Shown piece by piece: positions 1,111 to 53,833 of a stretch of 56,875 nt of DNA (within the stretch, counting starts at the first letter, position 1; each line of letters starts with the position of its first letter). The stretch is from Girardia tigrina (Eukaryota), in assembly GCA_001938485.1 (NCBI GenBank), contig MQRK01254813.1:1-56875 (forward strand), in the 5' to 3' direction. Under the pieces are notes generated by a model. That model did no database searches, was not told where the DNA came from, and worked only from the letters and a program-made list of their open reading frames with translations. The position numbers were made by a program, and so were the translations under genes.

Positions 1111-1528
1111 TATTTTTATATATATCTAAATTGACCGGAGGTAAACGTTGCGTTTCCTCCCCTACCCAATATTTAAAATCTTGAATAAGTTTAAGTTCTT
1201 TTCAAATATAATTTTAAATTGTAATTTTTGTATAAAGTGAAAATACATATTTTTATTTAAAAGTCTCGTTTTCGTTTCTCATTTGAATAAATCATTTTAA
1301 TCACACCTATATACCAACATAAACATTAATTTTACCATTAATCTTTTCTTTCAATGAAAAGGAATTTATTTACAGTTATGTGTTAACTTATTTATTTTAC
1401 AATATAATTTATCAATAAATCGATATTTAACATCATTTTCATTGTAATTAAAATGAATCATGAGTCATGAAAATCCAATTACTATTTTTAAAAGGAAATG
1501 GAAGCATTTCATTATTGTGTGATATTAC

Positions 1529-2194
1529 TGTGAGGAATATGGGGTGTGTAATTGTTTTTTGTAGTGTTTGCATGTTTAAATGTTGTGTGTTGATTTGGGA
1601 TTGTGCCTCTCCTAATCAGATGGATGAGTAATATTTTAATTCTTATAATCTGAAACTAATTTATCTAAATTTGGATTTAATATCCAAATTTTTAATTTTT
1701 ATTATTGCAACTTTAAATAATTTTATTGATTTTATTTTTTAATAACCAAAGTCATCCATGAAAAGTATATTTCAAGACAATATATTTCGACGGATCTACC
1801 GTCATCTTCACGTCACTAATTAATAATCAATTCACCTGTATATAAATACAAAAATGATGATTATGTAATCGATTGCATGAAATCATGCTAATCAAAAATT
1901 CTCAATAAGCTGTTTGAGACTGCCATTTGAACATTGATTTTAGGGAAACGTGACCTAATTAACAATGCTTCACATGACACTCTCTCCCAATAACTGTCAT
2001 ATGTTTACACAGAATTTTGAAATTATCAATTATTATTTTTGTAAATTTAAAATAATGTTCTCAAGTATAGTTCAGATTATAATGAGAGATATTAAAAATT
2101 TGGATTATAGTGAAAGCAATACTATTGATCATCATAAAGATGATAAGAAATGTGAATGTCATAAATGTTCTGACAAATGTGAGTTCTCTTAAAA
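1529..2194 (+). mobile_element. Solo LTR of the 'TGTGAG' Gypsy LTR family
   Basis: ATTAC TSD at 1524-1528 and 2195-2199. Both ends match the reverse complement of the solo LTR at 23295-23756; the terminal AACA has mutated to AAAA. Confidence 0.8.
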
Positions 2195-3874
2195 ATTACT
2201 ATTAAATGGAAATAAATTTATCGATTTTTAACAATCAAATGTGGAATATTACATGATTTTATTGATTTTTGAAAATAATGTTTTATTTTATTTAGTTAAG
2301 TAACAACATAGTCGAATTTCATAATAGTTTATTTTAAATTACACAATAATAATTGAATATTATAACAACATTCAATTATCCGACTTACAATTTTTAATTT
2401 GAAACTCTTGTGTATTATTTCAACAATTCAATGTTGCGCGATTTCAAGATCTTGGATATTTCAAAGCCACTTCGTTAGGAGTTCGGAATTTCACAATTTT
2501 GTTGAGGTTAAAAGTGAGAAAAATTTTAAAAATTAAATTTTTTAATTAACAGATATAATCATAAATTATTTTTCTATTTACCATTGTCCAAGATGTAAGC
2601 AAGGTAGAGATGATCGACGAGAAGCAAGTCAAACTGATGACACAACAATTGATTCTGCTGCTACATGAAAGTAGAGAAGCGAATAAAGTTTTTTGCAATT
2701 TGAATTAGAGGAAAATAAAAAAAAATTATTTGTATATAAAGGAGATATCAAGTTATTGCATAAAAAGCTAATTCGAAAAATCTAAATAGTCAAGAATAGT
2801 GGTATTTCTACCAGAAAGTTTCCTGAACATGAGAGAGCAGCACATTTAGCTCGTATTAAAGAAATTAAAGATTAATATAAACAATTACGTCGTGATCTTG
2901 AAAAAAGAAATTGGAAATTTAGAAGTAAGAGATTCAAGAGAAGTGTCACATCTAAGCAAATGTTGAAAAATTCGGGTAAATAGAAATAGAGTGGTTGTTC
3001 GCCTACATCGGACTAAAGGTGGGACAATGCTCAAGATGTAAATTAAAAAGAAAATTTAGAATTGGAATTTTCGATTTGTCGTGCTCCCTCTTTTTTCAAC
3101 ATTTTGTAAGCTCAGAGCCCCCATCCGTTTTTTAGAGTTCAATGGCAACTCGTGTGTGCTTTGTGCTCTTTTCGATGATCACTCATGGTTGGAGGGAACA
3201 GACGCGCCTCCTTCGTGCACATCAACGAATTGTGTGTGCGTCGGAGCGCCTTCGGGTTCTCTACCAGTATCGAGTATGGTCCGACTGGCAGCTCAGCTTC
3301 TGGAGGGGTTGATGTTACTAAAGCCTGCATTTTAAATTACACTGATGAATTATTAAAGTAAGACAAAGAGAGCTCCAAGGAGATAAACGACGGTCCGTCC
3401 GCGTGCCCCTTGCATTCTGCGGCCGGCCTGCGTCATCTCCAAAAGGTTCTTCGTTTCGATTACAATCGAATTATACTTTATATTTATTTCGTGCTTGTAC
3501 TTAATTACGTTAATACGAGATTCTGTTAGATTCGGTTGTAATATATTATTTTATTTACTAGAATGTTTTGGCAATTCTTTATTTTAACTCGTCTACTTTA
3601 ACTCATTCAATTTTAATCTTTTTAATAAAGAAGTCCCTTTGAGCGTGGTCCAAGTGGGTGATGGCCAAAACGTTTAATCATGGTGATTGTTCCAACTGGT
3701 TTAAACTCAATAGTGGTTAAGACAAGTCGGAACTCCTCATTGACCGTATTAGCCGTAGACAGAATTTTTATTCCTTTCAACATGATATTGTTGATATTGC
3801 GGCTGATTATTAGAAGCAAAAGTGGTGGCGACAGTACACCCTTCGGGATGCAATCAAATAGAGTTGGTGTCAAG

Positions 3875-5019: not shown

Positions 5020-5607
5020 ATGTAGGTTACCTACTTGTCCCGTCTTGCAACACGGACCAAGGAATTTTATATGATTGCGAGTCAAAGGGCTTTACGAAAC
5101 CCCACGGCGAAATTAATGTAAAGGTTCATTTCAGTGAGCTGTGATGTGACCTTGTCCGGTTTTCCCGGACGAGTGCAACATCAACACCATCTGAAGGTGT
5201 TCGTATCTGGGCGGATTTTGAGCGATCGTGTAAAGACCCGAAAGATGGTGAACTATGCTTGTGCAGGTTGAAGTCAGAGGAAACTCTGATGGAGGACCGC
5301 CGTGGATCTGACGTGCAAATCAATCGTCGTACATGAGTATAGGGGCGAAAGACTAATCGAACCACCTAGTAGCTGGTTCCTTCCGAAGTTTCCCTCAGGA
5401 TAGCTGACGTTTATGATTCCGTAGTTGAACCTGGTAAAGCGAATGATAAGAAGTATTGGGAGCGAAATGCTTTCAATTTATTCTCAAACTTTAAATGGGT
5501 TCGAAGTGCTCCTCTCTGTAATATTTTTGTTGGAGGTGTACATCGAATACAAATGCCTAGTGGGCCATTTTTTGTAAGCAGAACTGGCTATATGGGATGA
5601 ACCAAAC
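5020..5607 (+). rRNA. Isolated, mutated 28S (LSU) rRNA fragment, about the D3-D5 region; not a functional rDNA unit
   Basis: Conserved LSU blocks: CCCGTCTTG(C)AACACGGACCAAGG, ACCCGAAAGATGGTGAACTATGC, GGGGCGAAAGACTAATCGAACC, CGAAGTTTCCCTCAGGATAGC, GTAAGCAGAACTGGC. Confidence 0.9.
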
Positions 5608-7024
5608 ATTTTGTCTTTCGGAAGGACTATATGAGAGTAACATAAAAGACCACCTGACAAATAACCAAATCAGGACATGAACTGGACCGACAAAATTAAA
5701 CAAAAGGGGAATTTCAGTAAGTCTGTTCAAAGCTCATTTAATCATAAACTCATCTCGGCAGTAACATATACATCATTACTTAAAGTCAAATTTATTGCAA
5801 AACTGATTAACCAAACTTGTTGAGAATTCTTTCCTTGTACGCGATTTACGAATTATCAACAGCAAAATTTATTACTGTTTATTTAAAATTAAAATAGAAA
5901 TTAATTCAAGAATGAAAATGAAACAAAAATAAAATGGAATTTTTAACCCAAACAATAATAGATTATACAAATTTATTAGATAAGGTTACTAAATTTATTA
6001 TCAAATTTATTTAAATGAAACCAGATAATAGTCAATAATTAATAATCAACAAAATAATTAATGATAATTAATAATGATTAATTAACAATAAACTCTCCAA
6101 CAAACGCAATTCCATTAAGAATTATAAAATAAAAGAAACCAGAATAATTAATTCAAACTTTCCGACGAAATAAATTCAAGAATAAAAAAATAATTAAGAT
6201 TGATACATTTTCCAATCACCTTATTACCTCACTCATCTCATGGTAACTAATTCGCTTAACCACTTAACTCCTCTATGTACATATTTACATACTATTTCGA
6301 ACTCTACACCGCACACTCTTCCACGACTCCTACTTTATTACGCCTTGACTCTACATTCATTCTCAATACTAACTTCACCCACTCCTCTAACTCCACACAT
6401 TACCTACTTCTCGTGTACCTTTTCATCACCTCATAATAGTTATAGCGACATCGGATCGCCCATATAACTCTATTTGACATATTATCGAGCACAGATATGA
6501 ATATTAATGGCGACAGTAAAACAAAATAATAATAAACAAGGAAGATTAAATAAAGAAACATTTATTGAATTAACGTAAATAAATCATTATAACCAATAAT
6601 TATCAATGTAATAAAATAATAAAGAAAAACAAATAAAATCAACGATAAAACAAAGATAGGGGTTACCTATGAAATATATTCCCAATTTCTCCAAATTAAT
6701 CGACCAAATAATAATAGCAGGTTCTCCAAAATTGATAGACCAAATAATAATAATAAGCGGAAATAATCATCGCAATGCAGTCAAAATTATAATTGATAAA
6801 ATACGGCAAAAATGTAATTAATGAAATACGTCAAAATTTTGGTTCAACATTTGGTGTGTGTGCGTGCAGTGTGCGAAGTAGCGTATCGGGTATTTATATT
6901 GTGCCGGATATGTGCACTACCCGACACACCCGGGTATCTTGTTTATATTTTGATGCCTGTCTGCCTCTTGATTGATTCGCGAATATCGCTCTGGTAAGGC
7001 ATTGCGAGATTGCAATCGCATTAA

Positions 7025-8379: not shown

Positions 8380-10858
8380 GTGAGGCTCCGAGTTATCTTC
8401 CGAATCGTCAGTCCGTTTTTAAGGACAACAAATTAAAAGATGTTGCAACGTTGAAAATTTTAGACGGTTGGGTAGAATAGGGTTATCTAATCGAGTACAA
8501 TGAGGAAGAAATGGGTAAATCGATAGGATCCATACTGATATTTGGAATATTACAGGCTAATAAGTCCAAGATAAGACCCATTTTTGATTTTAGAAAATTA
8601 AACATTTACGTGGACGTTTATAGTGGTTCTGCGGACACAAGTTTTGAAAAGCTCCGCGATTGGCGACGTAGGGGTTCGACTTTTTCAATGCTTGATTCGT
8701 CAGAGGCGTACATGCAGATTCATGTTCATAAGGAGATGTGGCGTTACCAATCTTGTATCATTAATAACAAAAAATATGCTTTAACTAGGATGGGTTTTGG
8801 TTTAAACATTGCACCAACTATAATGAACGAAATTGTCAGGTGGATTCTGAACTCTGACACCAGGATGCGTGAAAATACTGACTCTTATATTGATGATATT
8901 TATGTATATGAAAGTTTCATTTCTGTTAAAGAAGTAGAAAAAGTATTCAATAACATCGGTCTCAAATGTAAGAAACCGGAAAATCTGTCACATGCCAACG
9001 AAGTTCGAGTTTTAGGAATGAAAGTCTTTAAGGACCAACATGTAGTGAGATGGAAGAGGGACAATCAGGTACAGGATGAGCTGGATGTGGAATCAATTTC
9101 ACGTCGTGAGTTATATTCGTTATGTGGACAATTAGTATGAATACATCCGGCAGCTAATTGGCTACGCCCGTCATGTTCATATCTTCAACGAAGGTGGGAT
9201 GAAAAGATAGACGAAGAATTATTCGAGAAGATTAAATGGGTTTTAAAGTCAGTGAGGGAGACTGATCCTTGCAGAAATTTATGGGCTATTGATGACTGCA
9301 GGGAAGGTATTATATGGTGCGACGCAAGTTCAATAGCCATTGCTGCGGCGTTAGCAGTCAAAGGGAACATAGTCGAGGACGCATCATGGTTGAGAGAAAC
9401 TGATGATTCTAGACATATTAATGTAGCAGAACTAAAAGCAGTTATAAAGGGTTTAAACTTATGTGTGAAATGGGGTTTAAGAAGCGTGATAGTAAAATCG
9501 GATAATAAGTCAGTAGTTTTGTGGGTAACCACAACAATCTCAGATCGCGAAAAATTAAATACCAAAGCTTCATCTGAGCTTTTAATAAAACGAAGACTGT
9601 CGATGATCAAGGAGCTGTGTCAGGAGTATGGGATCGAGTTGAAGATCGAGTTTTTTAATAGCGAAGATAACAAGGCAGATGAGTTGACAAGAATCCCAAA
9701 ACAATTAAAAAGAAGCAATTGTTTTTTATCGGTTACGGATGATCTACTTAAGCTACAGCAACTTCATGATAAGTGTCATTTAGGTGCAAACAGAATGCGA
9801 TATCTATGTGCGAAGCAAGAAATAGGTGTGTCAAACGCGGATATCAAAGATGTCAAGAATGTCAATCCATCGATTCGGCACCCGTAAAATGGAAAACCGG
9901 TAGGCTGAGCGTCAACGAAAACTGGACAAGACTTGCTGCGGATGTTACAAAGTACAATCAACAAAAATTTTTAAGTGTAATCGATTGTGGTCCTTCTCGC
10001 TTTGCGATATGGAAATTAATTAAGTCTGAAGACATCAAGTCAATTGTCTCAGAATTCTCAAGTTTGTTCTGTGAACGCGGGACTCCCAAGGAACTAATTA
10101 TCGATAATTATACCACATTTCATTCGGTAGAATTCAGCAAACTAATGGAAAAGTGGAACGTTCGAGTCATGTATCGTGCCATCAGTCGACCCAACTGCAT
10201 CGGAATAATAGAAAGGAATCATAGAACAATCAAAAGAATTGCATTCAGATCAAATATCAGCATTTTGGAAGCCTTATGGTGGTATAATAACACACCATCT
10301 GAAGGAAAAGAAACACCAAGCTCGGCGCTATATAGCTATTTGCCAATAGGGTTAGATATAATTGGAAAAAGTGAAAAGGAGCCGTTCTGTGGAAATCCAG
10401 ATTATGTTGAGAATTAATTAGTGTGGGTAAAACCGGAAAGCAGTACACCATGTACACAGCAATGGGCCAAGGGTCTTGTCGTGAAAAGAATAGATCAAAG
10501 GAAATATTTAGTAAATTGCAACGGATTTTGTGGTACAAGACATATCGCAGACATTCGACCTAGACAGCCTGACTTGGTTGAAAATTCCAAGTCATACTAG
10601 TATGAATATGGAGGAAACTGCATCACTACCAGACAATCAAACACAAGAGGAACAATCATTGAACAGTAGGCCTAGTAGAGAAAGACGAAGACCGCCTTAT
10701 CTAAATGATTACATTGTGGATTCAGATTCTTCTGTGGACGAATCTGGTGGGAGTGTTGGATATTAGATATTTTAATTATTTGAAATATTTAATTTATTAA
10801 CAACATCACAATTTGGATGCAAACATTTATTTACAACACAAACAGATTCTTCACAACA
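8380..10858 (+). mobile_element. 5'-truncated Ty3/Gypsy-type LTR retrotransposon (RT-RNase H-integrase, PPT, 3' LTR)
   Basis: RT 8511-9140 (RPIFDFRKLN, MGFGLNIAP, YIDD). RNase H 9252-9700 (WCDASS, HINVAEL, NKADELTR). Integrase 9773-10417 (SVIDCGPSRF, DNYTTF, IERNHRTIK). Stops and frameshifts throughout. Confidence 0.9.
10754..10858 (+). repeat. Short (105 bp) 3' LTR
   Basis: Follows purine-rich GGTGGGAG. Termini TGTTG...CAACA. Confidence 0.65.
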
Positions 10859-13984: not shown

Positions 13985-15022
13985 ATGGAAGATAATTCCC
14001 AACCTAACATGGTGGCAGCGCTAGCGGATTCAATCACGAACCGGCTGATTCCCGACATGTTCCAGATCGGAAAAGACCTTGAGAAATTTATTTCTCGCTG
14101 CAGAAGATATTTTGAAGCAGCGGAAATTAACCAAAAGAAATGGCAAACATGTATTTCTCCATGATACATGAAGATCTCTTGGAAGCATATGAGAACACAG
14201 CTGGTAAAGCTGATAATTTTTTAGGATCGGCTAAGACTAGTGTTGGAGAAGCCGAGAGCAGCCGCAACGGATTGGGAAAAACTGTTGAGTTATCACAAAG
14301 GTGCTTATAACGCACAGACCTTTTTCAAAAAAGTAGACCGGTTAGTAAAAAATGCGTTGTCGCATAGACTCGAGGAAGAGGAGTTAAAAGCTCAAATGTT
14401 AATTCATTGCATTGGTGATGAAGATGTTATTCGTGAAATTAAATTACAGAAACTAAAGAGGGTCAAAGAAATATCTGAGTTCGTTGTACTCGTAGACGAA
14501 ATAAACCACGAAAAGAAGAGCAGGATCAATGCTGTCCGAAGTTATCGAGCTGTTGTTCAAAACAGCAGGGCTCCTGAGGTAACTAAAAAATGGGTAAATC
14601 GGATTCCGCCGAAAAAACAACTCTCAAGAGTGGAATCAACCGAGTCCAAATGCTATACTTGTCAGCAACCAGGACATTTCAGCAGAAATTGCAAACAAAG
14701 AAGACCTGTGCAGTGTTGGAATTGTAAAGAGACTGGGCACATCAGTCGAAACTGTCCTAACAGAGAGTCATTGGTTTGTTTCTTGTGCGGAAAAAAGGGA
14801 CATAGGCGAACATAATGTCCAGAAATACGCTGTGAAAAATGTGGTCGGTATGGGCATCTAGCAGCGACATGTTTAGTGAACTCTAACAGACAGAATAATG
14901 GTTACGACAATGGAAGATCGAGAATGCAGAACAATGATCGAAAATTTAAAATCAACACCATAAACGAAGATGAAGAACGCACATTTGATTATAATGAAGA
15001 AAAAAACGAAGAAAATTCTTAG
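13985..15022 (+). pseudogene. gag: Gypsy-type gag with four CCHC knuckles, cut at the gag/pol junction
   Basis: CYTCQQPGHFSRNC, CWNCKETGHISRNC, CFLCGKKGHRRT*C, CEKCGRYGHLAATC. AAAAAAC at 15001-15007. Homologous to 39576-40652. Confidence 0.85.
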
Positions 15023-15194
15023 GGTATATCCGGAACTTATGGAAGAGATCATTATTAAGGTTTAAAAAGAAGCCTTGTGTCTTGAGAAGAGAGGAAGCTT
15101 TCTGAAAGAACATGTTTCTCTTGATGAAGGGGAGTCCTTTATTTTTTTTATGATTACCCTGGATAGGGAGGGGGAGTCTTTCACTCTAAGATTA

Positions 15195-16176
15195 CTAGAG
15201 ATAGATTTTTGAGGAGAAAAGTTGGAATGTGAATTCAAAAAGAGCCGTATTAGAAAAGACTTTAATCAGAGAGAAGTAAATAGACACAGTAATGAACTTC
15301 TTAGTTAGAAATGGTGTTTTGTTCCATTTAAACTTAATATTTCTCTTTTTAATGAAGTAGTTCAACTTTTGCCTAACTACAGTCTCATTAATCTTAACAG
15401 TCTTGCCATTAAAGATATTGTAGGATAATTTACAAGCAAGGTGTTCCGCAAAATCAGTTAAAGTATCATCACAAAATGGGTCCTTATGGGATTTATCAAC
15501 TAAAAATAAAGAAAATTCGTCTATTAAAGTTTCCAAACTCGGTGAACTTTTCCAAAAAGATAGAGTGTTCGAGGTCAAAATGAGAGCCATCAGAGCGGAT
15601 GATAGACACTTTGTCCACTTCAGTCATCAGAATATCCTTGTATTCCAGACAAAATCCATTAAGAATTTTTTCACAGAAAATCTCAGATCTATTGCAAGAA
15701 ACTCTATAAGAAATGTAAGTTTTGAATAGATTAGTGACTTTTGAGGAGTCAAGGTGAATGACAACAGATTTTCTTGAACAAAAGGAGGTCAGATGATTCA
15801 CAAGGATTTGGACATCAAAGGAGACAGAGCTGCCCGTAAATAAGTTGAATCCCTCATTTTGACAGATAAAGGCGAAGAATTCATCAAAGGTTTTATCAGA
15901 AAGAAGACCATAAAAACTAAAATCAAAGTGCTTGGACACAAATTCTGTAAAAGAGGAGATAGTTTTAACATACTGAGGGATCACATATTTGTTCCTAATA
16001 CAGAAGACTTTGAGAGCATTTAAGAAGCTGTTGGAGTCAAATGAAAAGGGTTCTCCCAAGATATTAATAGAGGAAATCAAGGTATTAACGGAGATGTCCA
16101 AAGATATGTGACTACAAAAGAGAGAAAAGGTGTCATCCTCAAAGGTACCCGACTGAATCTTAATCTTACATAACAA
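15195..16176 (-). CDS. Frameshifted ORF of about 320 codons, unknown product, divergent from the NeSL-like ORF
   Basis: Overlapping ORFs 15496-16176 and 15195-15590. Sense strand is T/C-rich. No recognised motif. Confidence 0.35.
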
Positions 16177-16719
16177 TTCTTTAAATTGTAAATATAAAGG
16201 GTCAGATAAGTCAGTAGAGACACCCGAACACTTAAAAATGTCCGAAAATAATGAAAAAATCCCAGTTTATTAGTCGCAATTAAAGTATTAAGAGAAATAT
16301 TATATACAAATTCCTTCGGCTCAGCTTTGGTCCCTTTCACAGAGTTTCCCCGCTACCGGATTCCTTTACTGGAGCCGAGATCAAGCCATCACCAGATCCA
16401 ACATCAACCTTTTCACCGAGGATATCAGGAAAGGCACCCGTCCTAGACGTGCACTCAACAGAGTTAAGCAGGCTACCTCCATACACACACGGATCAAGGC
16501 TTTTGTCGGTTGGTGTTTTTCAAGATGCTCACAAGAATTGCTCAGAAGATTCGGGCCAAAACCGGGTTGTTTTTTGTTCCGTTTTTTTCCTCTGTTTCTA
16601 ATTGTTCTCCTTGGTCTCCAGCTGCTCCTTCCGGATCGCACACTGTCCTCCAGTCAACTGCCTTCCAACCAGCGCTCAACAGTACCTGCCAGAACACCTC
16701 GGAAACAAGGACCGGACAA

Positions 16720-16909
16720 ACTTACCTGGGATCTGCGCCAGAGTCAACTTACCCGGAACCAATTCAAGAGTATACTTACCTGGCACCAGCTTAGGAGTCA
16801 ACTTACCTGGGACCCACTTCTGGCGATCAGAAACATACTTACCTGGGACCAGCTCCAGGATCAACTTACCTGGGACCCTCTTCTGGTGATCAAAGGCATA
16901 CTTACCTGT
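16720..16909 (+). repeat. Seven-copy coding minisatellite with core ACTTACCTG (Thr-Tyr-Leu)
   Basis: Cores at 16720, 16747 (ACTTACCCG), 16774, 16801, 16837, 16864 and 16900. Spacing 27, 27, 27, 36, 27, 36. Confidence 0.9.
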
Positions 16910-17379
16910 TGTCAGAATCATCAAATACTGTGCAGAGTACGATCCGTAAGCCGGTAGAACTTCCAGATATCTCAAATGCTACTCCACTCCTGACTCCTAA
17001 TACAGAACTCCCTTCTGAATCGGACTTGGAAACTGCTCTAAATCTTTTTACTGATGGCCATGTTACCAGACAGCAGCTTCTTAGAAAATTTATCAAGAGG
17101 ATGACCAATAAAGAAGAATACTTTCAAAAGTTCTGCAAGGCTGCTCTTCAAGCATGTGGCTCCAACAAATCCAGAGACAACATAATAGGACAATGCACTC
17201 GTCTCATTAGCGTTCATTGTGCCTCCTCCATTTCGACTCTTCAGAGTAACTTTGCTGTTCAAGGTATCATCCAAAGTTATATCCGTCATTGAAGAGTGTA
17301 AGGCTGCACCCTCCACGTGGCTAGACCAGTCTGTTATTGCGCCTAATATTCCAGCCATGCCCAATGATATTTCTGATCT

Positions 17380-17810
17380 TTCTACTGCTCTAAGCTGTTT
17401 ATCGTTCTCCGGTTCTGATATTGACTGCTTCTTGAGCTCCTTTATTTGCTGTCACACTCACATTCCTCTGAGTTCCAGCGTCTCTCACTCGACTGTTGTT
17501 GATAGAAGCCTGATTGGTGACATTCCATATAACTCTCTAGATCTTCTTGTCCCAATTCTTCTCTGTGACTCATTGGATCCTCCTGCATGTCTCCCTCAAA
17601 GAGCGCTCTGCTTGTTGGTATGACCCCTTGAGAAGTGCATCTCCCTATCTTGGTGAAGCTCGGTTTGCTTGTGCTAAATTCATCAAGGCTCTTTAGAATA
17701 TGGTGGGTGATATCTCCCTCCGGGACAGTGAAACTCATGATTTCCCTGGACAAGTTAATGACTTTGACTGCGGACCAATGGTTTGTGTTTATGCTCTTTG
17801 GATCAGCTTC
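17380..17810 (+). pseudogene. Ulp1/peptidase C48 domain 1
   Basis: LLVPILLCD-(shift)-HWILLHVSLKERSACWYDPL...FPGQVNDFDCGPMVCVY: catalytic H, D and C plus the oxyanion Q. Confidence 0.8.
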
Positions 17811-17919
17811 CCGGGTTCCAATGTGGACAGTAGTCCCTATCATGTTAGAAAGGTGGTTCATTCGCTGGGAAATTGTACCTTTTCTGATGATGTGGGAGAC
17901 GGTCCAGGACCAAATACTC

Positions 17920-18420
17920 TCCTTCCCTTTTTGGCTTTCTCTAATCATCATGTAGATGCATTTGCTGAAACCTCTGATAATTGCCAGGATTTCTTTGTCT
18001 TTCTTGTAGATCTCTCCAGGGCTATTGTCACCAACAATAGATATTTCATTCTTGAACATTTCTGCCTTCGTGATATTGCCAACAAAAGAAGATTGCCTTT
18101 CCTCTCTTCTTTCGGCAATGTCGCTGGATAGTTGTGACTTGTGACTTCTCTTCTTCTACAATCTCTGTTTGGGATCCCGTTGGCCTTCAGTCGCTCTCTC
18201 TTTATCGATCTATCATTCTGACTTTATGCGATTTCTGTAAGGGCTTTCTGATGGTCCACCTTGTCTATGCTGATTCCCCCCTAACATTGTTACCTCTACA
18301 AAGTACATTGATAGTAGTCCTCTTATTTGTGGTTATTTGAGGAATTTTTCGGGAGTCTCTTTTGATGATAGGATCAACCTGAAAGCCATCCGAACCCTTG
18401 CTATGAAGTTTGTTCTTCGG
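17920..18420 (+). pseudogene. Second, degenerate Ulp1-like domain
   Basis: RWIVVTCDFSSSTISVWDPVG...IDSSPLICGYL parallels domain 1 but lacks the catalytic His and Cys. Confidence 0.55.
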
Positions 18421-18849
18421 TCATCTGATAAGGTTAAGAAATCTGCTCATCCTTCGACCACCTCTCACTGTGTGGCTGCTCGCAAAGTTCTTGCACTGAC
18501 CTTTAACAGGGATCATGCAAATGATGAACTTCACCAGCTTAATTCTGCCTTTTCTGGTCATATTTATTCTATTAGACCTGCAAAACCTCGTTCTCCATAT
18601 CTTGGCTGCTCAGAAGTGAACCCTAATAGAGTAGATCATGACAGAATTCAAAAAACTTATGTTGTAAATCCCAAGGCTGCTATGGCCCTAATAAGACCAC
18701 GGGTGAACGCATCTGCCAAACCAACTCCTGCGGATTTTACATATTTTGTCAAACGGAATAATTGTCATTTTAATTTCCTTCCTGACTCTTTTGACTGTCC
18801 TATTATGACAGGTCCTGCCTTCTCTCCTCACTTATTAAAACATGCATTT

Positions 18850-19186
18850 TTATAACTCGATTTCCAATTGCAATTTCTGCCAGGATACATCCCTCAATCT
18901 TTAAATAATCACCTGTTACTGATTGTAAAGCTTCATGAACTTCAATAATGTCTAATTTTTCTGATGTCAATAACATTTTTTCATTAACTATAGTTATTGA
19001 ATATCCGGTGTCTACCAAAGCACGAATTTTTCTGTTATTAAACAATACCATCATTGTTGGTCTCCTTCCGGATTTAGTTTTAATAGTAAAAACATAATTA
19101 CTGGGTACTCCCCATTGATTCCTTTTTTCAATGTTCCTGTGTTCATTATCATCAATCTTTTCTATATCTGGATTAATTGGTTTCAT
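18850..19186 (-). pseudogene. Retropepsin aspartic protease (start of pol), truncated
   Basis: RPTMMVLFNNRKIRALVDTGYSITIV...LQSVTGDYLKIEG. Confidence 0.85.
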
Positions 19187-19472
19187 TTCTTACAATTTAA
19201 TAAATGGATAGGAAGGAAGAGGTGTTAAATTTTCAGGTGGATAGTATAAATTTTGATCTTGATTTCTCAAAATTTGAATTTGATTTTCCTATGTCGTCCA
19301 CTCATTTTTGGATACTCCTGTTGGTTGAGTTTGATCTGTACCTGTTATTTCGTTTCCCTATATCATCTTCATTCCTTCTTCCATCACTCGTTGTACTTGG
19401 ATCACTAAATGAATCATCTGAATTTGACTCAAATTGTACCTTTTTATTTTTTCCTTTCCGATTTCGACGACT

Positions 19473-21376
19473 TTAATATTTTTTACACTGTTTAACTATT
19501 GTTTTTAATGATTTAATTTCTTTACTATGGTGATGGATAATTAAAAATTTCGCTAAAGTGGGTACACATCCCACGATCAATTGCCAAGATACACCAACCA
19601 TTGTATATAATCTATAAGTCGACAGAACTTGTGTTAAGACAACTTTTAACAAAACGTATATCACATAAACACCAATAAAGCCTACACATGCCTGACCAAA
19701 GAAAACAAATTTTCCCCAAATCTTTTTTAGAGTATTATATGCTGCTTTTTGATATTGATCAACGCTTAAAAAATTATCATAATTAACCTGAACAACACCT
19801 ACTGGTAGGACAGTCTCAACAATTTCTGTTATAAATCTTTTTCGTTTTGAAGGAATCAGTAAATTTCTTCGAGCATCCTCCACTTCTTCAGGGGAATAAA
19901 TACATGTTGTAGACATTTGATCCAAAGATGTAAAGTTTATAAGATAATCCAATTTTGTCAATTTCAATTTTTCGACATTTTTCACTTCTTTATTGTTTGG
20001 TAATGAAATCCACGTGTCAGGTGTCACTCGATATAATGGGGCTGTAATATCATTGCAATGTAGTAATACTGATTTAGTACAATTTTCAGTTAAAACTATT
20101 GTTATAGGTTCCACATACCTTAATTGTCCCTGATAATTCACTGGGAGTTCGTTAGTACACTGATTGAACTTAATTAGTTGAACAGAGACTTCATTACATT
20201 TATAAGTATATAGGACTTCTCCCATCACTCTACCGAATACTCCATTTTATGAAACTAGCATTGGTGCTACTAGGCTTGGATTTGTGAAAACTAAACCTAT
20301 CCGGTTTTTCAAAATTTCCCTATTTAGCTTACAATCATTCAATATTACTTCTCGATACATATTCTCAATAGTAAATTGGTTAAAATGAAATGCAAAATCA
20401 ATTTTATTACTTAGATATTGTGATAATTTCACATCAGCGTTATGCACAATTCCAGCATCTGGAAGTTTTTCTTTGGAAACATATAAACCTTTATAATTCG
20501 TAGTGTAAATAATTTATCCACAAAACTTCTGTTTATCTTTCCTAATAAACCTCATTCCATCGGATGTAATCGAGGACAATAAAACAGTTCCTAATTTCTT
20601 TTGAATTATTGGATATGCCTTTCTAGTTTGGTACTTTTTGGTTTTAAAATATCCGGTCTTTCTCTAATTTGCATTCCCTGAGCTTCAATAAAGTCTGCTG
20701 ATTTCAAAAATGCCAAATTGCACTCTTTGTAATTAACATTATATAATAAAACTGACTCTCCAGTCTGACAACTTGATTTTCTAAATTTGCAAAATGGATG
20801 TGATTGTAATTTTCCAGTTGCATCGTCAAATATTCCATCAAATGTTCTTAATTTGGTTTGATACTCTTCCGAAATCATAATTTTTTGTATAATTTTTCCT
20901 CCCAATTTTACAGGTTCACCTTCACAGTCACTATTTACTTCTATTACTCTCTTTCTAACAACTGATTCTCTCATTATTGCTCCTTCTTTAGCTGCGAGTT
21001 TTAAAGTTTCATCAATTTTTAATTCTTTCGTTTGAAATGCAGCTTCACAATTTTCAGGTAATATCTTCACAGTTCTGGGAATTGCATTTATCTTGATAAT
21101 AGAAGTATGACTCCATTTTCCACAATGATAAATATAAGTTGCTCTTTTCACAATACATTCTCTTACTTTAGCTCTACGAAATCCAGATTCCTGATATAGA
21201 TGATACAAAACATTTGTTTTCTCTTGAATATGTAACGGGTAAGCTTCTGAACATTCTGCTACATCTAGAAGAGAATAAATTTTTCCGACTTCAGTCTGAG
21301 AACAATCATACGCTACAAGAGCTTGTGTTTGATTCATTCCAAGAATAATAAATATGATTAAAGTAAACCACCACAA
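19473..21376 (-). pseudogene. env: Chuvirus-like (class III type) envelope glycoprotein
   Basis: Signal peptide LWWFTLIIFIILGMNQTQA, then LVAYDC, SLLDVAEC, HCGKWSHTS, GEVLYTYKC, CTNELPV, and IWGKFVFFG followed by a TM segment. This motif order is typical of chuvirus G and its retroelement-captured copies. Lesions at about 20230-20610. Confidence 0.8.
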
Positions 21377-21676
21377 TTTAGAAGTTTTTTCTTTGTTAAA
21401 TACATGTTTTGTCTTATCATTATTTATATTATCAATACTTTTCATAACTTTTTGTAAAAATGATTTATCTATTCTTGGAGTCAATGGTTCTTGGATTTCA
21501 CAAATACTTTCTCTTTTCATGTCATTACCAATTTCCTCATTATCAATACTCTCCAGAGGTACTTCTGGTTCACATTTTATCTCATTTTCGGTGATCATTG
21601 GTATAATTTCATTAGTATTCCTCATAACATTATTATCCATAAAATTTTTATCATAATCATTAAAATATTTACCCAT

Positions 21677-21895
21677 GAAAATCACTTGAATTTAATTTAT
21701 TTCACCATGTAAAATACCATAATCATAAACGTAATCTTCATCTTCTAATTCTTGATTTCTGTAAAATAATTTAATTGTTCCAGAGTTGTCAAGTATTCGT
21801 TTTACTTTTTCTCTAAGTTTTTTAACTTTAATACACCAATGTTCAGCTACATGAACAATACGATTGTCAGGAATATTAAATGCTAAAAATATTTT
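21677..21895 (-). pseudogene. Ubiquitin-like domain 2 (not in ORF track)
   Basis: KIFLAFNIPDNRIVHVAEHWCIKVKKLREKVKRILDNSGTIKLFYRNQELEDEDYVYDYGILHGEIN*IQVIF. Same frame as ORF 20606-21685. Confidence 0.7.
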
Positions 21896-22189
21896 TGATA
21901 CATTTGAATTTTCTTTACGAAGATACTTCGAAAATTTCTTTAGAAGATCGAAATCGAATCGAAGAAGAACGAAATTTTGTATTTTTGTGTATTTGAGCTA
22001 CCAACAAAGATTTAATTAAATGAATTAATCTTTCAGATACCGAAAACGTATCAATTTCCTTTAATAAACTAATAATGTATTCATCATCAAGATAATCACA
22101 TTTAAATTCATTAATTAATCTCAGTGCAACATCTTTTATACACATTTCAGTTTCTAATTCATATTTCTTTTCAGTATCCTTTTCTTGTA

Positions 22190-22859
22190 TTTTAACTTCC
22201 ACACTATTAATATACGAAGGTAATATTCCATAATCTAATAAATATTTATCATGTTCCATTACTTGATTATTAAAGATCAAAATTATGAGGGGTTAATTTA
22301 AATTTTTATCTCGCCTGAATAGTTTATTATTTTAAATTTAAAGGGTAAAATATTTTTATGTTAATTTGCTTATTAAATATTTTAAAAAATTAAAAATCAT
22401 ATAATAAAAGAAAATCATAAAAAATAAAATATTTATTTAAAAATAAAAAATATCTTTAATGTATCTATTAAATATCTTAAAATTAAAAATGTCAAGAAAA
22501 CAAAAATATTAAATATTNNNNNNNNNNNNNNNNNNNNNNNNNNNNNNNNNNNNNNNNNNNNNNNNNNCAGGATTTTAAAAATTAAATCGAAAAGAATTTA
22601 ATAGATTAATTTGGGTCGAGATAATTAATTTAAATTAACAGGAAAATTTGTTTTAGAAATGTGAATTGTTATATTAATAAATTTTGATGTTTTAAAAAAA
22701 ATGAATTCTGATATAGACGTTGCAACCACTTCTCACAAAAATAAAATTTTCAACTTCCATTTTATTTATTATCAACTCTTTTAAATCATTAACCTTACTC
22801 TGAGGTGATAAATCTATCATAGTAACTTCTCTTCCGCAACTATTAATCATAATTTCAAG
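22190..22859 (-). pseudogene. Ubiquitin-like domain 1, split by the insertion at 22284-22737
   Basis: Rejoined translation: LEIMINSCGREVTMIDLSPQSKVNDLKELIINKMEVENFILIFNNQVMEHDKYLLDYGILPSYINSVEVKI. Confidence 0.7.
22284..22737. mobile_element. Nested solo-LTR-like insertion (contains a run of N)
   Basis: AAAAT TSD at 22279-22283 and 22738-22742. Termini TATGAG...CTCACA. Excision restores the reading frame. Confidence 0.75.
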
Positions 22860-23294
22860 TTTTTCAAATATTAAAATCTGTCTTAATTCTTTTCAAAGAT
22901 TTTTCATCAATAACTTTATTTTATTTTTTGAATTGTCATTATCATGTAAATAATTTGATAACAATTTTAATAAATTTGCAGTTTTCTCTGTAGTAACTTC
23001 CATTCCCGCAATCTTTGCTGCATAATTATATACTTTCTTAGTACTTTCTTTATTTAAATCTATTTGATTTGATAATCGATTTATACTAATTCTAATTTTA
23101 TCCAATTTTAAATCATTAATTCTCAAACAACTTTGTTGCTGTTTAATTTCTTCATCATTTGACTGATCTGATTTCCTTTTAATATTCTTACATTTCAAAC
23201 CATTAAACATAGATGTTTTATTAGACGTTTCATCTACTCTAGCAAATAATCTGTCAAATTGAGTTTTTAACTCATCAAATTCATATTTTATAGT

Positions 23295-23756
23295 TGTTAA
23301 GAGAACTCACACATTTGACAGAACATTTATTACATTCACAAATTTTATCATCTTTATGATGATCAATATTATTGCTTTCACTAGAATCCATTAATTAATT
23401 TTCAATATCTCCCATTATAATCTGAACTACACATGATAAGATTATTTTATTTAAAAATATTTAATTTAAATTTGATTGGCTAAAATAAAATATTTTTATA
23501 GACATTTTTAAACATTAATTTGATTTTAATTATATAAAAATTTACAAAAATAAAATCATTAAAATTATTTAAAAGTTGCAATAATAAAAACTAAAAATTT
23601 GAATATTAAATCTAAATTTAAATAAATTAGTTTCAGATTTAAAAAATTAAGTATTGATAATCCATCTGGTTAGGAGAGGCATAATCCCAAATCAACATAC
23701 AACATTTAAACATGCAAACACTACAAAAAACAATTATACACCAAATATTCCTCACA
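23295..23756 (-). mobile_element. Solo LTR of the 'TGTGAG' family
   Basis: ATAGT TSD at 23290-23294 and 23757-23761. TG..CA termini. Excision restores the frame (...DDDSTNTIKYEFDELK...). Confidence 0.9.
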
Positions 23757-24979
23757 ATAGTATTAGTACTATCATCATCTGAAGATACACAGCCAACATC
23801 GACAGGTTTATCCTGGAATTTTATTTGTTTCTTTAAAATTGATGGTGATGATTGTTTTATATTGGATCTACATGATCTCTCAACATGTTCATATTTTTTG
23901 CACTTTTCACATTGAATTTAGCCTTTTAAATTTACTTTGTCACGTTACGGTGACGGTGTTAACGATCTCGTTTTAAATCTACAAACATTCGATGTATAAC
24001 CCTGTTTACCACAATTAAAGCAAGTTTTAATATTTGGTGATTTGATTGTTGTTTAAACCAACATTGATTACTAAGATGACCAACTTTGTTGCAATTATAG
24101 CATCTTGGAATTCTTTGGTCAAATTGTTTTTGGTCATTTCTAAATCTTGGGTGATCATTTTGTTGGAAATTGTTTGATCTGGTAAACTTAGGACTTCTGT
24201 CTCCGTTGTTTTTGTTGTTATTTTGGAAATATTGATTTCTTGTCCTTCTGTCGTCTGGTTGTTGGGATCTTTGCATTCTAGGAGAAACATAACCATCACT
24301 TTCATCTTCAGATTCACTTCTATTTATAATTGATTTGGGTGGACGTTGAAATGATTTCATGGTAGTCATAAAAACTGGGCGAGCTTGACCAATGTTTGAA
24401 TTCATTTCAATTATCATAGCTTTTTTCACTAATTCATCAAAATTTTCATATTCAGCCAGACTCAGTGCTGCTTTTAAGTGATTTTGAATTCCAGACCAAA
24501 ATTGATCCTCTACAAATTTATTTGTTTGTTCCGACCACATTTCCTTTTCGCCAAAAGCTTTTTCTGCTAGGGTAGATAGATGAAAGCGAATTCACTAACT
24601 GATTCATTGCTATTTTGCACTCTTGTATAGAATTTCTTTCGTAAAATTCGTCCGATAACTCCGCTGATTAATTTTTCAGCAAGGGCATCCTTTATTCTTG
24701 ACCACTCAACCACTGTACGTTTATCAATTTGATTAAAAGCTTCACGAGCTGCACCTTTCAATACAAAGGTAATCTTTGAATCATTATTTTGTCTGACCAG
24801 CCATAGGCCGATGCGTACTTATAGTAATCAGTCATAAAATCAACAAAATCGACAGGATCTCCTCCATATTGATTCACAGGTAATCTCTGGAAGCTTGCCA
24901 AATCGTTATTTACTTCTCTATTTTCTTCAATCATGATTTTATTTCCAAGTTTTTTATTCCTTAAATAATATCTAGACAC
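23757..24979 (-). pseudogene. gag: gag (capsid plus three CCHC knuckles)
   Basis: QRLPLY/LKGAAREAF, RVQNSNESVSEFA, DQFWSGI. Knuckles CYNCNKVGHLSNQC, CFNCGKQGYTSNVC, CEKCKKYEHVERSC. Confidence 0.85.
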
Positions 24980-25126
24980 TTTTAAATACTTTCTTTAACA
25001 CAATTTAATATTTTCTTTAATAATTCGATAAATACTCAGCAAAATAATCTTTAATATATTTGTCCTAAAGAATTTTCACACGGAATGTGCTTCAATTGAT
25101 TCAGAAAGATAATTTTCAATTAAATA

Positions 25127-25138
25127 GTCGGCTCACCA
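25127..25138 (-). promoter_or_regulatory. Primer-binding site TGGTGAGCCGAC (tRNA uncertain, Arg-like)
   Basis: TGG-initiated, 9 nt inside the LTR end and upstream of gag. Confidence 0.55.
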
Positions 25139-25147
25139 AATATATGA

Positions 25148-25765
25148 TGTTGGGTATTACAATTAAATCTAGTGTCTATCTTTATTTATTTTAAACTACT
25201 GATCTGACTCCAAATGACCAAAAGGTTTCTTCCAACAATAATATATGAAGAATGAACAAAACCTTTAAATAATAATTTTTTCTGCAAACAACAATTGAAG
25301 TACAAATATAAATTCAACTCTATTAGTACGCTACAACTCAAAGATCACATTTCGATCAAACAGTTACAACAACTTCTTAGTTCGAGCGATGCTAGAATGA
25401 TTTATTTAAAACTTAACTTCTCCTTTACAGGATACTAAAAACTTTTTCTATTATTTCTTTATTTAAAAAAAACGATAATAAAAGAAATTAACAAACAAGT
25501 TTACCGCACATATAATTCAAAGTCAATTTTCTTTTGAGTTATCAATTGAGAGTCTGTAACTGAAATAACTATTGCTTATATACTAGTTTTTCCTAACCTT
25601 GAAAATTGAATAACAAAAACAAATCTCAAAATATTTACAAATATTTTATAAATTTTATTAAAATAACTATTATAATAATCAAAAATTATTAATTTTAACC
25701 AGCGAATTATTTTAAATTTTTTATTAAATTTTAAAATTTAATTTACATTTTTCGGAACCCCAACA
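25148..25765 (-). repeat. 5' LTR of the env-bearing element
   Basis: Perfect TGTTGGG...CCCAACA termini adjacent to the PBS. Confidence 0.7.
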
Positions 25766-43745: not shown

Positions 43746-44339
43746 TACTAACTTTAATAATAGAATTTATTACACTTGTTTGATTGTAAAATGAGCGCGA
43801 TGAAATTTGTCATGAAGAGAAGATGCTATTAATAAAACAGCTGAGTGTATTTATATGAAATTTCAAGAGAAAAATTAAATAATGAATGATGATTCAGAAG
43901 AAATATGGAAGTCTTTCTTTAGTGGCATCCACAACGCCGGCAATCATGCTGACCGTGTTCTCATTGTGGTTGTCTCTGGCCACGCACCTCTACGCTCGCG
44001 TTTTGCGTCACAACTAATAAGTTACTCATTTTATCTCTATATAGTTCTACCTTGCGGAACACGACGCTCAAACTCTCGGGTCTGCTCGAAACATCTGGAA
44101 TGGTCGTGTCTTGGACGAGGATCGTTGTCTCAATCGCAAATCGTCTTATTGTCTCAGTTAAAAATCGTCTCGTCCAAATTCCCACGCATCAAATTAGCTG
44201 CCGTAGTTTCGCAACTGATTGATTTAAACAAATGCGAAACTATTCACTTGTGTAACCGATTATCACTAAAATCGCGAACGAGAGAGTTTGTCCATCGAAT
44301 CGGCGACGAAATTCCAGTCGGAAAAAAAAATTTGGAAAA

Positions 44340-44605
44340 TTTGAGGACAGATATTTTTAAAAATAAATCAATCGTTGAAGCAGAGGAATTCTACTATAAT
44401 ACAATTACAAAAAATCAATTGTACTAATCACAGACGAATTGGTCGTCAAGACGACGGGGGTTGCGATGTATGTTTCATGGGAAATTTTAATTTGAAAGCG
44501 AATTGGTTATCTTATTCTTTTGGTGTTAATTATATCTGGGAGTTTGATGATCTGGAAATTTCGACGAAATTTAATTGTTTTGTCAGAACATTCGATCCTT
44601 CAGTG
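44340..44605 (+). pseudogene. Captured METTL24-like (Methyltransf_22) fragment; second copy at about 52670-52933
   Basis: C..HRRIGRQDDGGCDVC...SYSFGVNYIWEFD...FNCFVRTFDPS follows the R.G..DGGW.VC / YSFG.N..W.FD / C.V..FDP pattern. Confidence 0.65.
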
Positions 44606-44656
44606 ACAAAAAAAATCCGAATGAAATTCCAGCAAGCTAAAAATAGGCAACCCACG

Positions 44657-44859
44657 ATTGGCCGATCTAAAAATAGATTGGCCCATCTGAGAATGATGTT
44701 AATTTTTTGTGAAAAATGATTTATTGAAATTTAACTTTTCCGAAAAATATTCGGTGATTTCGATTCTTGTTTAAATTAATTAATTTGAGAAATTAAATAA
44801 ATTTTGGCGCAAAGTGATTTTTTTTAATCTGATTTGTTTTTTAAAAAAGCAGCCATTTT
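44657..44859 (+). promoter_or_regulatory. Candidate LTR promoter
   Basis: Two inverted CCAAT boxes (ATTGG at 44657 and 44677) and YY1-like GCAGCCATTTT at 44849-44859, present in both LTRs. Confidence 0.4.
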
Positions 44860-45636
44860 TTTTATTTTAAAACTTTTTCTTGTTTTCTGGAAAATAGAGA
44901 TTGAGAGGTTCGAGTTTCGGTGGCCGTGGTTTGATTTCGTACAATTTTTTTTTAAAAATGGAATCGGTACCAAACAACACGATTTACATGAACAATCTCG
45001 ATAAAAGAATCAAAAAATAAAAGCTGAAAAAAGCTCTATTTGCCGTGTTCTCTCAATTCGGACGAAATCTCAAAATTATGGTCAGTACACGATTAAAATT
45101 GAAAGGTTTGTTGTGTTTGAAAATATCAAATGCCCTGAAGCTTATTGTACTAAGTCAATTGAAAATAGAGAAATAAAAAAGCTCTTAAATGAAAATGATT
45201 ATGAATTGTATATGAGAAAATCGTTAAATCGTGTTAAGCCAAAGTTGGTCAATTCATATCAATGTCAAACTCCGAACTGTGACTTCTTCTGTGAATTATA
45301 TGACAAAAATCTGAAGACCTTAAAATGTCCAAAATGTAAAGAGGAAAATTGTCTTTCTTGTAAAGCTGTCCACCCAAAAGAGAAATGTAAAGACTATCAA
45401 GCTAGAAATATTTGTGCCAGCTAAAACCGCGATGCAATCCGGAACCTTTTGGACGAGGAATTGGAGAATCGAATCTGATCAGCCAGAGAAAGATGTGCGA
45501 ATAACGTTGGAAACGGCAATCGGGAAATTTGAAATCAGTGAGATTATTAATTTAAATCCCCCGTGTCCCGCAACCCACCCACCATCGCTAACACGTCGCA
45601 ACCACAAAGCTGCGCTGACTCTTGCACAACCATTTC

Positions 45637-51735: not shown

Positions 51736-53285
51736 TATGAGGAGGATCCAACCCAGTTGAGTCAATAAAAGAGTTATTTCGGGAGGGGCGATTGATCCAA
51801 AACAGCCTAGGTCAAGTTTCGGGAATTCTGGAAGGGGGAAATGGAAGAGATCAATCGCGAGACCGAAACCACCTGCTGGTGAAGAAAGTGGAGAAATGAT
51901 TGGAAGGATGTGGAGGAGATGTCTCGACTTGAAGGGCTGAGGGCCTGAGAAAAATAAGGTATGATCTATGGAAAGTTGATGAGTGAGTATGTTGAACAGT
52001 AAGGTATGGTTGAGAATGAATGTGATGAATAGTTGAAAGCTTGAAATAGACTGTTGGGTATGATTGAGTATGAATCTGACCACTAGTGGTCAGAAGGGGG
52101 GAGAATGTTTGATTGTAAAATGAGCGCGATGAAATTCGTCATGAAGAGAAAATGCTATTAATAAAACAGCTGAGTGTATTTATATGAAATTTCAAGAGAA
52201 AAATTAAATAATGAATGATGATTCAGAAGAAATATGAAAGTCTTTCTTTAGTGACATCCACAACGTCGGCAATCATGCTGACCGTGTTCTCATTGTGGTT
52301 GTCTCTGGCCACGCACCTCTACGCTCGCGTTTTGCGTCACAACTAATAAGTTACTCATTTTATCTCTATATAGTTCTACCTTGCGGAACACGACGCTCAA
52401 ACTCTCGGGTCTGCTCGAAACATCTGGAATGGTCGTGTCTTGGACGAGGATCGTTGTCTCAATCGCAAATCGTCTTATTGTCTCAGTTAAAAATCGTCTC
52501 GTCCAAATTCCCACGCATCAAATTAGCTGCCGTAGTTTCGCAACTGATTGATTTAAACAAATGCGAAACTATTCACTTGTGTAACCGATTATCACTAAAA
52601 TCGCGAACGAGAGAGTTTGTCCATCGAATCGGCGACGAAATTCCAGTCGGAAAAAAAATTTGGAAAATTTGAGGACAGATATTTTTAAAAATAAATCAAT
52701 CGTTGAAGCAGAGGAATTCTACTATAATACAATTACAAAAAATCAATTGTACTAATCACAGACGAATTGGTCGTCAAGACGACGGGGGTTGCGATGTATG
52801 TTTCATGGGAAATTTTAATTTGAAAGCGAATTGGTTATCTTATTCTTTTGGTGTTAATTATATCTGGGAGTTTGATGATCTGGAAATTTCGACGAAATTT
52901 AATTGTTTTGTCAGAACATTCGATCCTTCAGTAACAAAAAAAATCCGAATGAAATTCCAGCCAGTTAAAAATAGGCAACCCACGATTGGCCGATCTAAAA
53001 ATAGATTGGCCAATCTGGGAATGATGTTAATTTTTTGTGAAAAATGATTTATTGAAATTTAACGTTTCCGAAAAATATTCGGTTATTTCGATTCTTGTTT
53101 AAATTAATTAATTTGAGAAATTAAATAAATTTTGGCGCAAAGTGATTTTTTTTAATCTGATTTGTTTTTTAAAAGAAGCAGCCATTTTTTATTTTAAAAC
53201 GTTTTCTTGTTTGCTGGAAAATAGAGATTGAGAGGTTCGAGTTTCGGTGGCTGTGGTTTGATTTCGTACAAAATTTTTTTTAAAA

Positions 53286-53458
53286 ATGGAATCGGTACCA
53301 AACAGCACAATTTACATGAACAATCTTGATAAAAGAATCAAAAAAGAAGAGCTAAAAAAGCTCTATTTGCCGTGTTCTCTCAATTCGAACGAAATCTCGA
53401 AATTATGGTCAGTACACGATTAAAATTGAAAGGTCAAGCGTTTGTTGTGTTTGAAAAT
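53286..53458 (+). pseudogene. Captured U1A/U2B''(SNF) RRM1 N-terminal fragment; second copy at 44958-45124
   Basis: [34 protein letters not shown](G/E)..L.IMVSTRLKLKGQAFVVF. Confidence 0.9.
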
Positions 53459-53737
53459 ATCAAATGCCCTGAAGCTTATTGTACTAAGTCAATTGAAAAT
53501 AGAGAAATAAAAAAGCTCTTAAATGAAAATGATTATGAATTGTATATGAGAAAATCGTTAAATCGTGTTAAGCCAAAGTTGGTCAATTCATATCAATGTC
53601 AAACTCCGAACTGTGACTTCTTCTGTGAATTATATGACAAAAATCTGAAGACCTTAAAATGTCCAAAATGTAAAGAGGAAAATTGTCTTTCTTGTAAAGC
53701 TGTCCACCCAAAAGAGAAATGTAAAGACTATCAAGCT
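53459..53737 (+). pseudogene. Captured RBR E3 ligase (HOIL-1/RBCK1-like) fragment covering the RING1 end and IBR; second copy at 45125-45403
   Basis: IKCP..C...IENREIKKLL..Y..SL..NSYQCQTPNC..C..KCPKC..NCLSCKAVH..CKDYQ. Confidence 0.8.
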
Positions 53738-53833
53738 AGAAAAGACAGAATATTTGTGCCACCTAAAACCGCGATGCAATCCGGAACCTTTTGGATGAGG
53801 AATTGGAGAATCGAATCTGATCAGCTAGAGAAA
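53738..53833 (+). pseudogene. Captured NDUFS4 (complex I 18-kDa subunit) fragment; second copy at about 45404-45491
   Basis: RKDRIFVPPKTAMQSGTFW(T/M)RNWRIESD, compared with the family motif R.VRIF.P...AMQSG...T..W.IEFD. Confidence 0.75.

Follow-up and report, generated by a model that had tools for sequence, protein, structure and literature searches.

Gag, a gB-type glycoprotein and Pol in one frame: a putative membrane-threaded polyprotein of a Ty3/gypsy family in Girardia tigrina

A 56,875-nucleotide stretch of DNA from Girardia tigrina (GenBank assembly GCA_001938485.1, contig MQRK01254813.1, positions 1 to 56,875 of the forward strand; here called the window) contains a damaged retroelement in which a chuvirus-like glycoprotein (G) lies between gag and the protease (PR). 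Such a locus raises the question of whether Gag, G and Pol were made as one polyprotein and, if so, how a chain with a glycoprotein in its middle would be laid across a membrane. A single, membrane-threaded Gag-G-Pol polyprotein was well supported, because the junctions between its parts are open in several copies, no break recurs among the copies, the parts are under purifying selection and relatives carry them in one chain; the processing of this polyprotein is what we infer. The one-frame family is predicted to cross the endoplasmic reticulum (ER) membrane four times and, in our judgment, is likely to build enveloped particles.

Reading frame from Gag to integrase

Three-frame translation and Pfam searches indicated that the window copy is a decayed, 3'-truncated Ty3/gypsy element on the minus strand (window 25765-18825). 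Its order is long terminal repeat (LTR), primer-binding-site-like (PBS-like) site, gag, two ubiquitin-like domains (UBLs), signal peptide, G, one transmembrane segment (TM), tail and protease. A first-pass annotation, made from the sequence alone, had given the same order and coordinates, and these held, with the UBL call coming from a sister copy. The features, all on the minus strand, are as follows.

25148..25765, minus strand: 5' LTR, 618 bp, TG...CA, differing by 9% from the two LTRs of one sister copy
25127..25138, minus strand: PBS-like site (TGGTGAG...), starting with TGG, 9 nt past the LTR
23757..24934, minus strand: gag, with a capsid-like region and three CCHC knuckles (all three seen in sister frames), broken by three frame changes and stops
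23295..23756, minus strand: secondary insertion 1, solo-LTR-like (TG...CA, starting TGTGAG), with a 5-bp duplication
22738..23294, minus strand: linker and start of UBL1
22284..22737, minus strand: secondary insertion 2, starting TGTGAG, with a 5-bp duplication and a 50-N run inside
21695..22283, minus strand: remainder of UBL1, helical spacer and UBL2 (SUMO/ubiquitin-like), with one frame change
21320..21373, minus strand: predicted internal signal peptide of G (signal 1)
19700..21319, minus strand: G ectodomain, a class III (gB/chuvirus-type) fusion glycoprotein, with one frame change and stops
19635..19691, minus strand: predicted TM of G
19070..19634, minus strand: predicted cytosolic tail, with an amphipathic segment, a basic cluster and a low-complexity spacer; stops and one frame change
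18825..19069, minus strand: aspartic protease (PF13975), DTG at 19012-19004, 3'-truncated at 18825

The window gag matched the zinc knuckle family PF00098, and G matched PF24664 (E values of 4e-21 and 3e-43). Pfam did not recognize a UBL in the pieces of that region present in the window; the UBL region of a sister copy matched PF11976/PF00240. The LTR end and the PBS-like site recur in 24 of 25 pattern matches among the loci fetched from the genome, the remaining one being a chance match. Over its whole length, the window copy changes frame six times, and within the alignments up to ten stops stand in frame. As had been claimed on first inspection, UBL2 runs in frame into G apart from exactly one stop, and the stretch from G through the tail to PR contains, besides stops, one frame change. 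The two insertions, likewise proposed at that stage to be flanked by target-site duplications (TSDs), are absent from sister copies (88 to 95% identity), which run contiguously across both sites. Insertion 1 has further copies in the window and elsewhere in the genome, as a free repeat; an inverted second copy, itself split by about 280 bp, lies at window positions 1522-2207. At the other end of the element, similarity to the sister copies stops at 18825, precisely at the end of an unrelated multicopy repeat. The window copy is therefore truncated inside PR, and its reverse transcriptase (RT), RNase H and integrase (IN) are not in the window.

The rest of the family was sought in a fragmented assembly of 1.43 Gb, in which match counts are lower bounds. 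There were at least 153 matches to the C-terminal half of G (148 of 3122 candidates scored), at least 106 to the UBL region and at least 110 to the region behind IN. From 96 fetched stretches, partly picked for long open frames or LTR matches, at least three subfamilies were recognized, one with 86 to 97% DNA identity to the window and the others with 68 to 83%. The near and far relatives are the same for gag, linker, UBL, G, tail and PR, so that identity co-varies across the regions. Sister copies that lack both insertions continue past PR into RT, RNase H and IN. The family spans about 13 to 14 kb, with 0.6-kb LTRs and an open reading frame (ORF) estimated at roughly 3,200 codons; TG...CA LTRs, a 4-bp target duplication, the order PR-RT-RNase H-IN and a gypsy-type RT/RNase H mark it as Ty3/gypsy. 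One copy with two LTRs (10 mismatches in 622 bases, or 1.6%) has a 4-bp duplication, a span of 12.9 kb and internal damage, and the LTRs of another subfamily are 98.9 to 100% alike between copies. Such near-identical LTRs indicate that the family was active recently, and the distance of the window LTR from the two-LTR copy's pair indicates that the window copy is older. Behind the post-integrase region comes a separate ORF of about 530 codons with an RNase T-type exonuclease match (PF00929); in two copies it was seen to precede the 3' LTR. At locus L020 one subfamily is inserted in another, and at locus L013 a foreign pol runs into G, through insertion or assembly error.

Junctions between the parts were scored on 76 loci and the window wherever both anchors were found; the query copies were included, which biases the figures upward. 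Passage was open, without an N gap, in 7 of 24 cases from gag to the knuckles, 5 of 23 from the knuckles to UBL1, 12 of 25 from UBL2 through signal 1 into G, 6 of 22 from G through the TM to PR and 4 of 16 from PR to RT. Behind IN, it was open in 3 of 12 cases through a second signal (signal 2) into a further ectodomain and in 4 of 8 from that ectodomain to its TM (TM2). The stops were scattered (116 at 99 positions, 64 at 58 and 36 at 35), with none common to more than four copies, and the frame changes between G and PR varied in size and sign (+1, +1, -1, -1, +8, -8 and -19). A programmed stop or frameshift at a junction was rejected, since no break site was common to the copies. Between subfamilies, pairwise ratios of nonsynonymous to synonymous change (dN/dS) were 0.03 to 0.30 for gag, linker, UBLs, signal, G, tail, PR and RT, including 0.16 for signal 1, 0.09 to 0.10 for G, 0.06 to 0.07 for the TM region and 0.12 to 0.15 for PR. 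Only short spacers were near neutral; the PR-RT spacer of 160 codons is conserved (0.14 to 0.17). A dUTPase match (PF00692) was absent from relatives P0002 to P0004, the PR-RT spacer itself not having been scanned singly.

Relatives in the databases had the same parts in one chain. Predicted protein P0002 (3865 aa, four cluster members) contains knuckles, G, proteases, RT, RNase H and IN in order, and predicted proteins P0004, P0067, P0138 and P0148, like it from other assemblies, combine gag parts, G and protease. Among 15 top G matches picked for length or position, a protease follows G in 9 and gag or a knuckle precedes it in 3. Remoter G matches (about 22 to 28% identity) mostly stand alone, with a length near 650 aa. 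Together, the open junctions of natural copies and the one-chain relatives support the single Gag-G-Pol frame that the first-pass annotation had proposed.

G and a second membrane protein behind the integrase

For the structure of G, a stretch naturally free of stops in one sister copy was folded with 97 alignment rows, and the model reached a pLDDT of 89. Its best fold match in the PDB was herpesvirus gB (E of 7e-14), and its best matches in a viral library were chuvirus glycoproteins (E of 2e-39; TM score of 0.67), which is the fold that had been expected. Sequence searches of G against solved structures returned nothing under an E of 0.04, and a search for near-length homologs with part of G found one protein. 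G retains 12 near-invariant cysteines that it shares with viral glycoproteins.

In sister copies, the IN frame continues for about 420 residues into a second predicted membrane protein: a short hydrophobic stretch that is conserved, then an all-beta ectodomain and, by way of a stalk, a strong TM. A model of this region (23 rows, pLDDT of 73) matched three-domain fibronectin type III (FN3) fragments with an E of 2e-10, at low whole-chain TM scores; Pfam fn3 was found in 6 of the 23 members, and an Atlas match agreed (0.93). Hydrophobic segments follow IN in 12 of 13 proteins, usually one signal-like and one terminal. In relatives, the same slot holds FN3-like, immunoglobulin (Ig; P0004) or unrelated ectodomains. 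Between subfamilies, dN/dS was 0.00 to 0.13 for signal 2 and 0.26 to 0.40 for FN3, which by this measure makes evolution of the FN3 ectodomain three to four times as fast as that of G. This faster evolution fits a host-contact role, which the FN3 protein may have. No paper on a post-integrase FN3/Ig membrane protein was found in the literature in view, which excluded subscription journals, figures and bioRxiv supplements.

Several relatives (P0001, P0002, P0003, P0138-P0141 and P0148) have two or three aspartic-protease-like domains. One position is next to the tail of G and another precedes RT; P0002 and P0003 also have such a domain behind IN. These extra domains may release the cytosolic parts from their membrane anchors. 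P0036 has signal-like and TM-like segments about 170 residues apart before the protease, without a G match; possibly these represent a further small membrane protein in the clade.

Predicted topology and other readings of the locus

A topology with Gag in the cytosol, G in the lumen and Pol again in the cytosol is predicted, and it fits the hydrophobicity pattern in 19 proteins, as judged with simple hydrophobicity scales under a home-made weighting. On a rough insertion scale, every one of the 19 proteins has a single insertable segment behind the G ectodomain: the first segment scores -1.1 to +2.0 and the second +3.0 to +8.9. Since the first would insert and the second would not, the number of crossings between G and PR would be odd, as the function of Pol requires. 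Two TMs after G, which would leave Pol in the lumen, were rejected, as the second segment was non-inserting in all 19 proteins on this scale.

On this topology, the Gag-UBL part would stay in the cytosol, signal 1 would direct G into the lumen and be cut by signal peptidase, and the single TM of G would bring the chain back to the cytosol, with the amphipathic tail resting on the membrane. PR, RT, RNase H and IN would follow in the cytosol, after which signal 2 would direct the FN3 ectodomain into the lumen and the final TM would anchor the FN3 protein. Cleavage by the element's own protease would then detach Gag and the enzymes from their membrane tethers. Such a chain would supply every part in the same amount and at one membrane; G would act as the fusogen, and attachment or host contact would likely fall to the faster-evolving FN3 protein.

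Several observations weigh against this reading. The whole frame is unbroken in none of the copies fetched from the element's own genome, and most junction crossings are either broken, by stops, frame changes or large indels, or N-gapped. The topology was derived from simple scales rather than from a trained predictor or from experiment. In the window's family, the segment that follows the TM of G attains Kyte-Doolittle values of 1.5 to 1.7, and most of the 19 proteins do not show the positive-inside bias directly at the TM. Moreover, both scans overlooked signal 2 of the window's family, whose hydrophobicity is weak; P0003 lacks a membrane segment after IN; and 18 of 27 copies have an in-frame Met 22 codons ahead of signal 1.

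This Met also favors a reading in which the frame is continuous but most G is made from a subgenomic RNA, spliced or internally initiated, with the polyprotein route serving mainly for Pol. Spliced env is the rule in Drosophila errantiviruses, and LTR elements do not usually make Gag and Pol in equal amounts; both points count toward such an RNA. However, the position of the Met is Ile in 7 of the 27 copies, which come from other subfamilies, so separate initiation is not conserved. Furthermore, ribosomes that reach Pol must in any case have translated signal 1 and the TM, since these precede Pol in one and the same frame. Contigs assembled from four runs, three of which were only guessed to be RNA, gave weak evidence in the same direction: the 15 joints displayed, out of 29, all lacked GT..AG ends, and a single contig of 2.7 kb spans from before signal 1 to PR. 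The contigs cover a sister copy in 30 of 30 bins (the integrase-FN3-exonuclease part excluded); as these are contigs, mostly from runs of guessed nature and with no silent stretch for comparison, such coverage does not show expression. A mainly subgenomic origin of G therefore appeared unlikely to us.

We gave an equally low probability to the idea that the polyprotein is made while G and the FN3 protein have ceased to form infectious particles and instead serve contact spread, superinfection exclusion or as a receptor decoy. The rapid evolution of FN3 and the exchange of FN3-like for Ig or unrelated ectodomains in that slot would suit such functions, but G keeps its 12 near-invariant cysteines, a complete gB-type fold and a dN/dS near 0.1. 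Lastly, a chimeric locus, with G as a secondary viral insertion or PR from another element, was rejected as highly improbable: the window copy is indeed heavily broken and nested among other repeats, but the many genomic G matches and the sisters' colinearity from LTR to PR speak for a native G, the 276 nt of PR that precede the cut are 97 to 98% identical to those of 12 other copies, levels of identity move together in all regions, and relatives elsewhere have the same order, all in keeping with the initial view that G and PR belong to this element.

With the membrane-threaded polyprotein as the preferred reading, a more speculative extension is a two-part envelope within one polyprotein, in which a conserved gB-type fusogen ahead of PR would be paired with an exchangeable attachment protein behind IN, and Pol, tethered to the membrane at both ends, would be released by the extra protease domains that some relatives have beside the anchors. 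We regard this extension as possible rather than probable. If true, it would amount to a retroelement with a herpesvirus-like split between binding and fusion and a swappable tropism slot. The gB-type retroelements are not known to have an attachment protein; if the FN3 protein were the receptor-binding partner of G, it would offer a handle on how such elements choose cells.

Known elements and other features of the window

A FastTree phylogeny of 136 RT-RNase H rows, among which were no named references for errantiviruses, Burro or nematode endogenous retroviruses (NERV), joined all 11 rows from the element's own genome, all 11 G-bearing database rows and 6 other rows in one 28-row clade (SH-like support of 94). 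The named Pol matches were all of Ty3/gypsy type. BEL/Pao elements of the Anakin type, with env 3' of pol, were ruled out, since the Pfam domains of Pol are those of Ty3/gypsy and G precedes PR. NERV, which differ from the window's family in having nematode hosts, reportedly possess a continuous gag-env-pro-pol ORF.

The architecture that the first-pass annotation had thought undescribed proved to have precedents, in that an in-frame env between gag and pol has been published (PMC6431247), as have GAG-ENV-POL elements of gB type (PMC13524379). The Gag-G-Pol layout is thus already in print, and the post-integrase surface protein is the less known part. Chary and Hayashi (eLife, PMC13524379) described GAG-ENV-POL errantiviruses with gB-type ENV in Nematoda, Bryozoa and Platyhelminthes, with six from Schmidtea alone; those of different phyla do not form one clade, and NERV (Sacco et al. 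2022) are cited there as having ENV before POL. The window's family has the gag-env-pol order and the gB-type ectodomain between signal/TM and TM that mark these elements, and it resembles Smed_errantivirus_1 and _2 in gene order, gB-type ENV, Ty3/gypsy Pol and multiple copies (PMC13524379). Over one stretch compared by eye, the window G matches the ENV of Smed_errantivirus_1 (Platyhelminthes C1a group) at 45 of 64 positions; closeness to Schmidtea elements would by itself make a planarian-like flatworm a likely host. In the available part of that paper no PBS is listed for the Smed elements, in contrast to the conserved PBS-like site of the window's family. The main text, with figures and sequence repository outside view, does not contain the words 'polyprotein', 'in-frame', 'fused', 'ubiquitin', 'fibronectin', 'immunoglobulin' or 'exonuclease'.

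The planarian Burro elements (Arkhipova and Yushenova 2019, PMC6431247) have an in-frame env between gag and pol, called 'the first case' by their authors. Burro and GYPSM1 are similar to the window's family in having one ORF, Gag with two or three CCHC knuckles, a SUMO-like PF11976 domain, an in-frame env before PR (with matches to mononegavirus fusion glycoproteins in Burro), RT-RNase H-IN and accessory ORFs. In addition, the best G match among cluster representatives has a weak Bcl-2 match upstream, which resembles Burro's BCL2. However, Burro exceeds 30 kb, with an ORF of 4,900 to 5,100 aa that includes MATH, BCL2, BIR and ankyrin domains (PMC6431247), compared with the 13 to 14 kb of the window's family; none of these four domains gave a Pfam match in the scanned sister pieces. 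Burro also has a dUTPase-like domain between PR and RT, where the window's family has its conserved 160-codon spacer. The available text on Burro mentions no membrane protein behind the integrase. Anakin BEL/Pao elements have the same glycoprotein class, chuvirus G (Dezordi et al. 2020, PMC7642597). Rotifer gypsy elements likewise have a separate 3'-5' exonuclease ORF before the 3' LTR (Rodriguez et al. 2017, PMC5408684); this ORF3 is of the DEDDy type. The ORF of the window's family, a DEDD exonuclease, matches PF00929. Troyka elements, with CG termini and a 3-bp TSD (PMC12440569), do not fit. To these precedents, the present analysis adds evidence, from copies and from selection, that a compact family has conserved the single frame, together with a four-pass membrane topology explicit enough to be tested and the second surface protein behind IN.

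Elsewhere in the window, positions from about 15000 to 18825 are occupied by the GC-richer multicopy repeat whose end cuts PR at 18825. It gave no useful Pfam or Atlas match; a motif in one of its frames may point to DIRS-type elements. A 1.87-kb direct repeat pair (43777-45632 and 52106-53975; 97% identical, 8.3 kb apart) probably represents the LTRs of another element, and each copy includes a broken fragment resembling the N terminus of the U1A/U2B'' snRNP protein. An isolated fragment of large-subunit rRNA lies at 5060-5734, and pieces of other LTR elements, comprising RT, RNase H, IN and gag with zinc knuckles, lie at 8481-10417 and 14225-14815.

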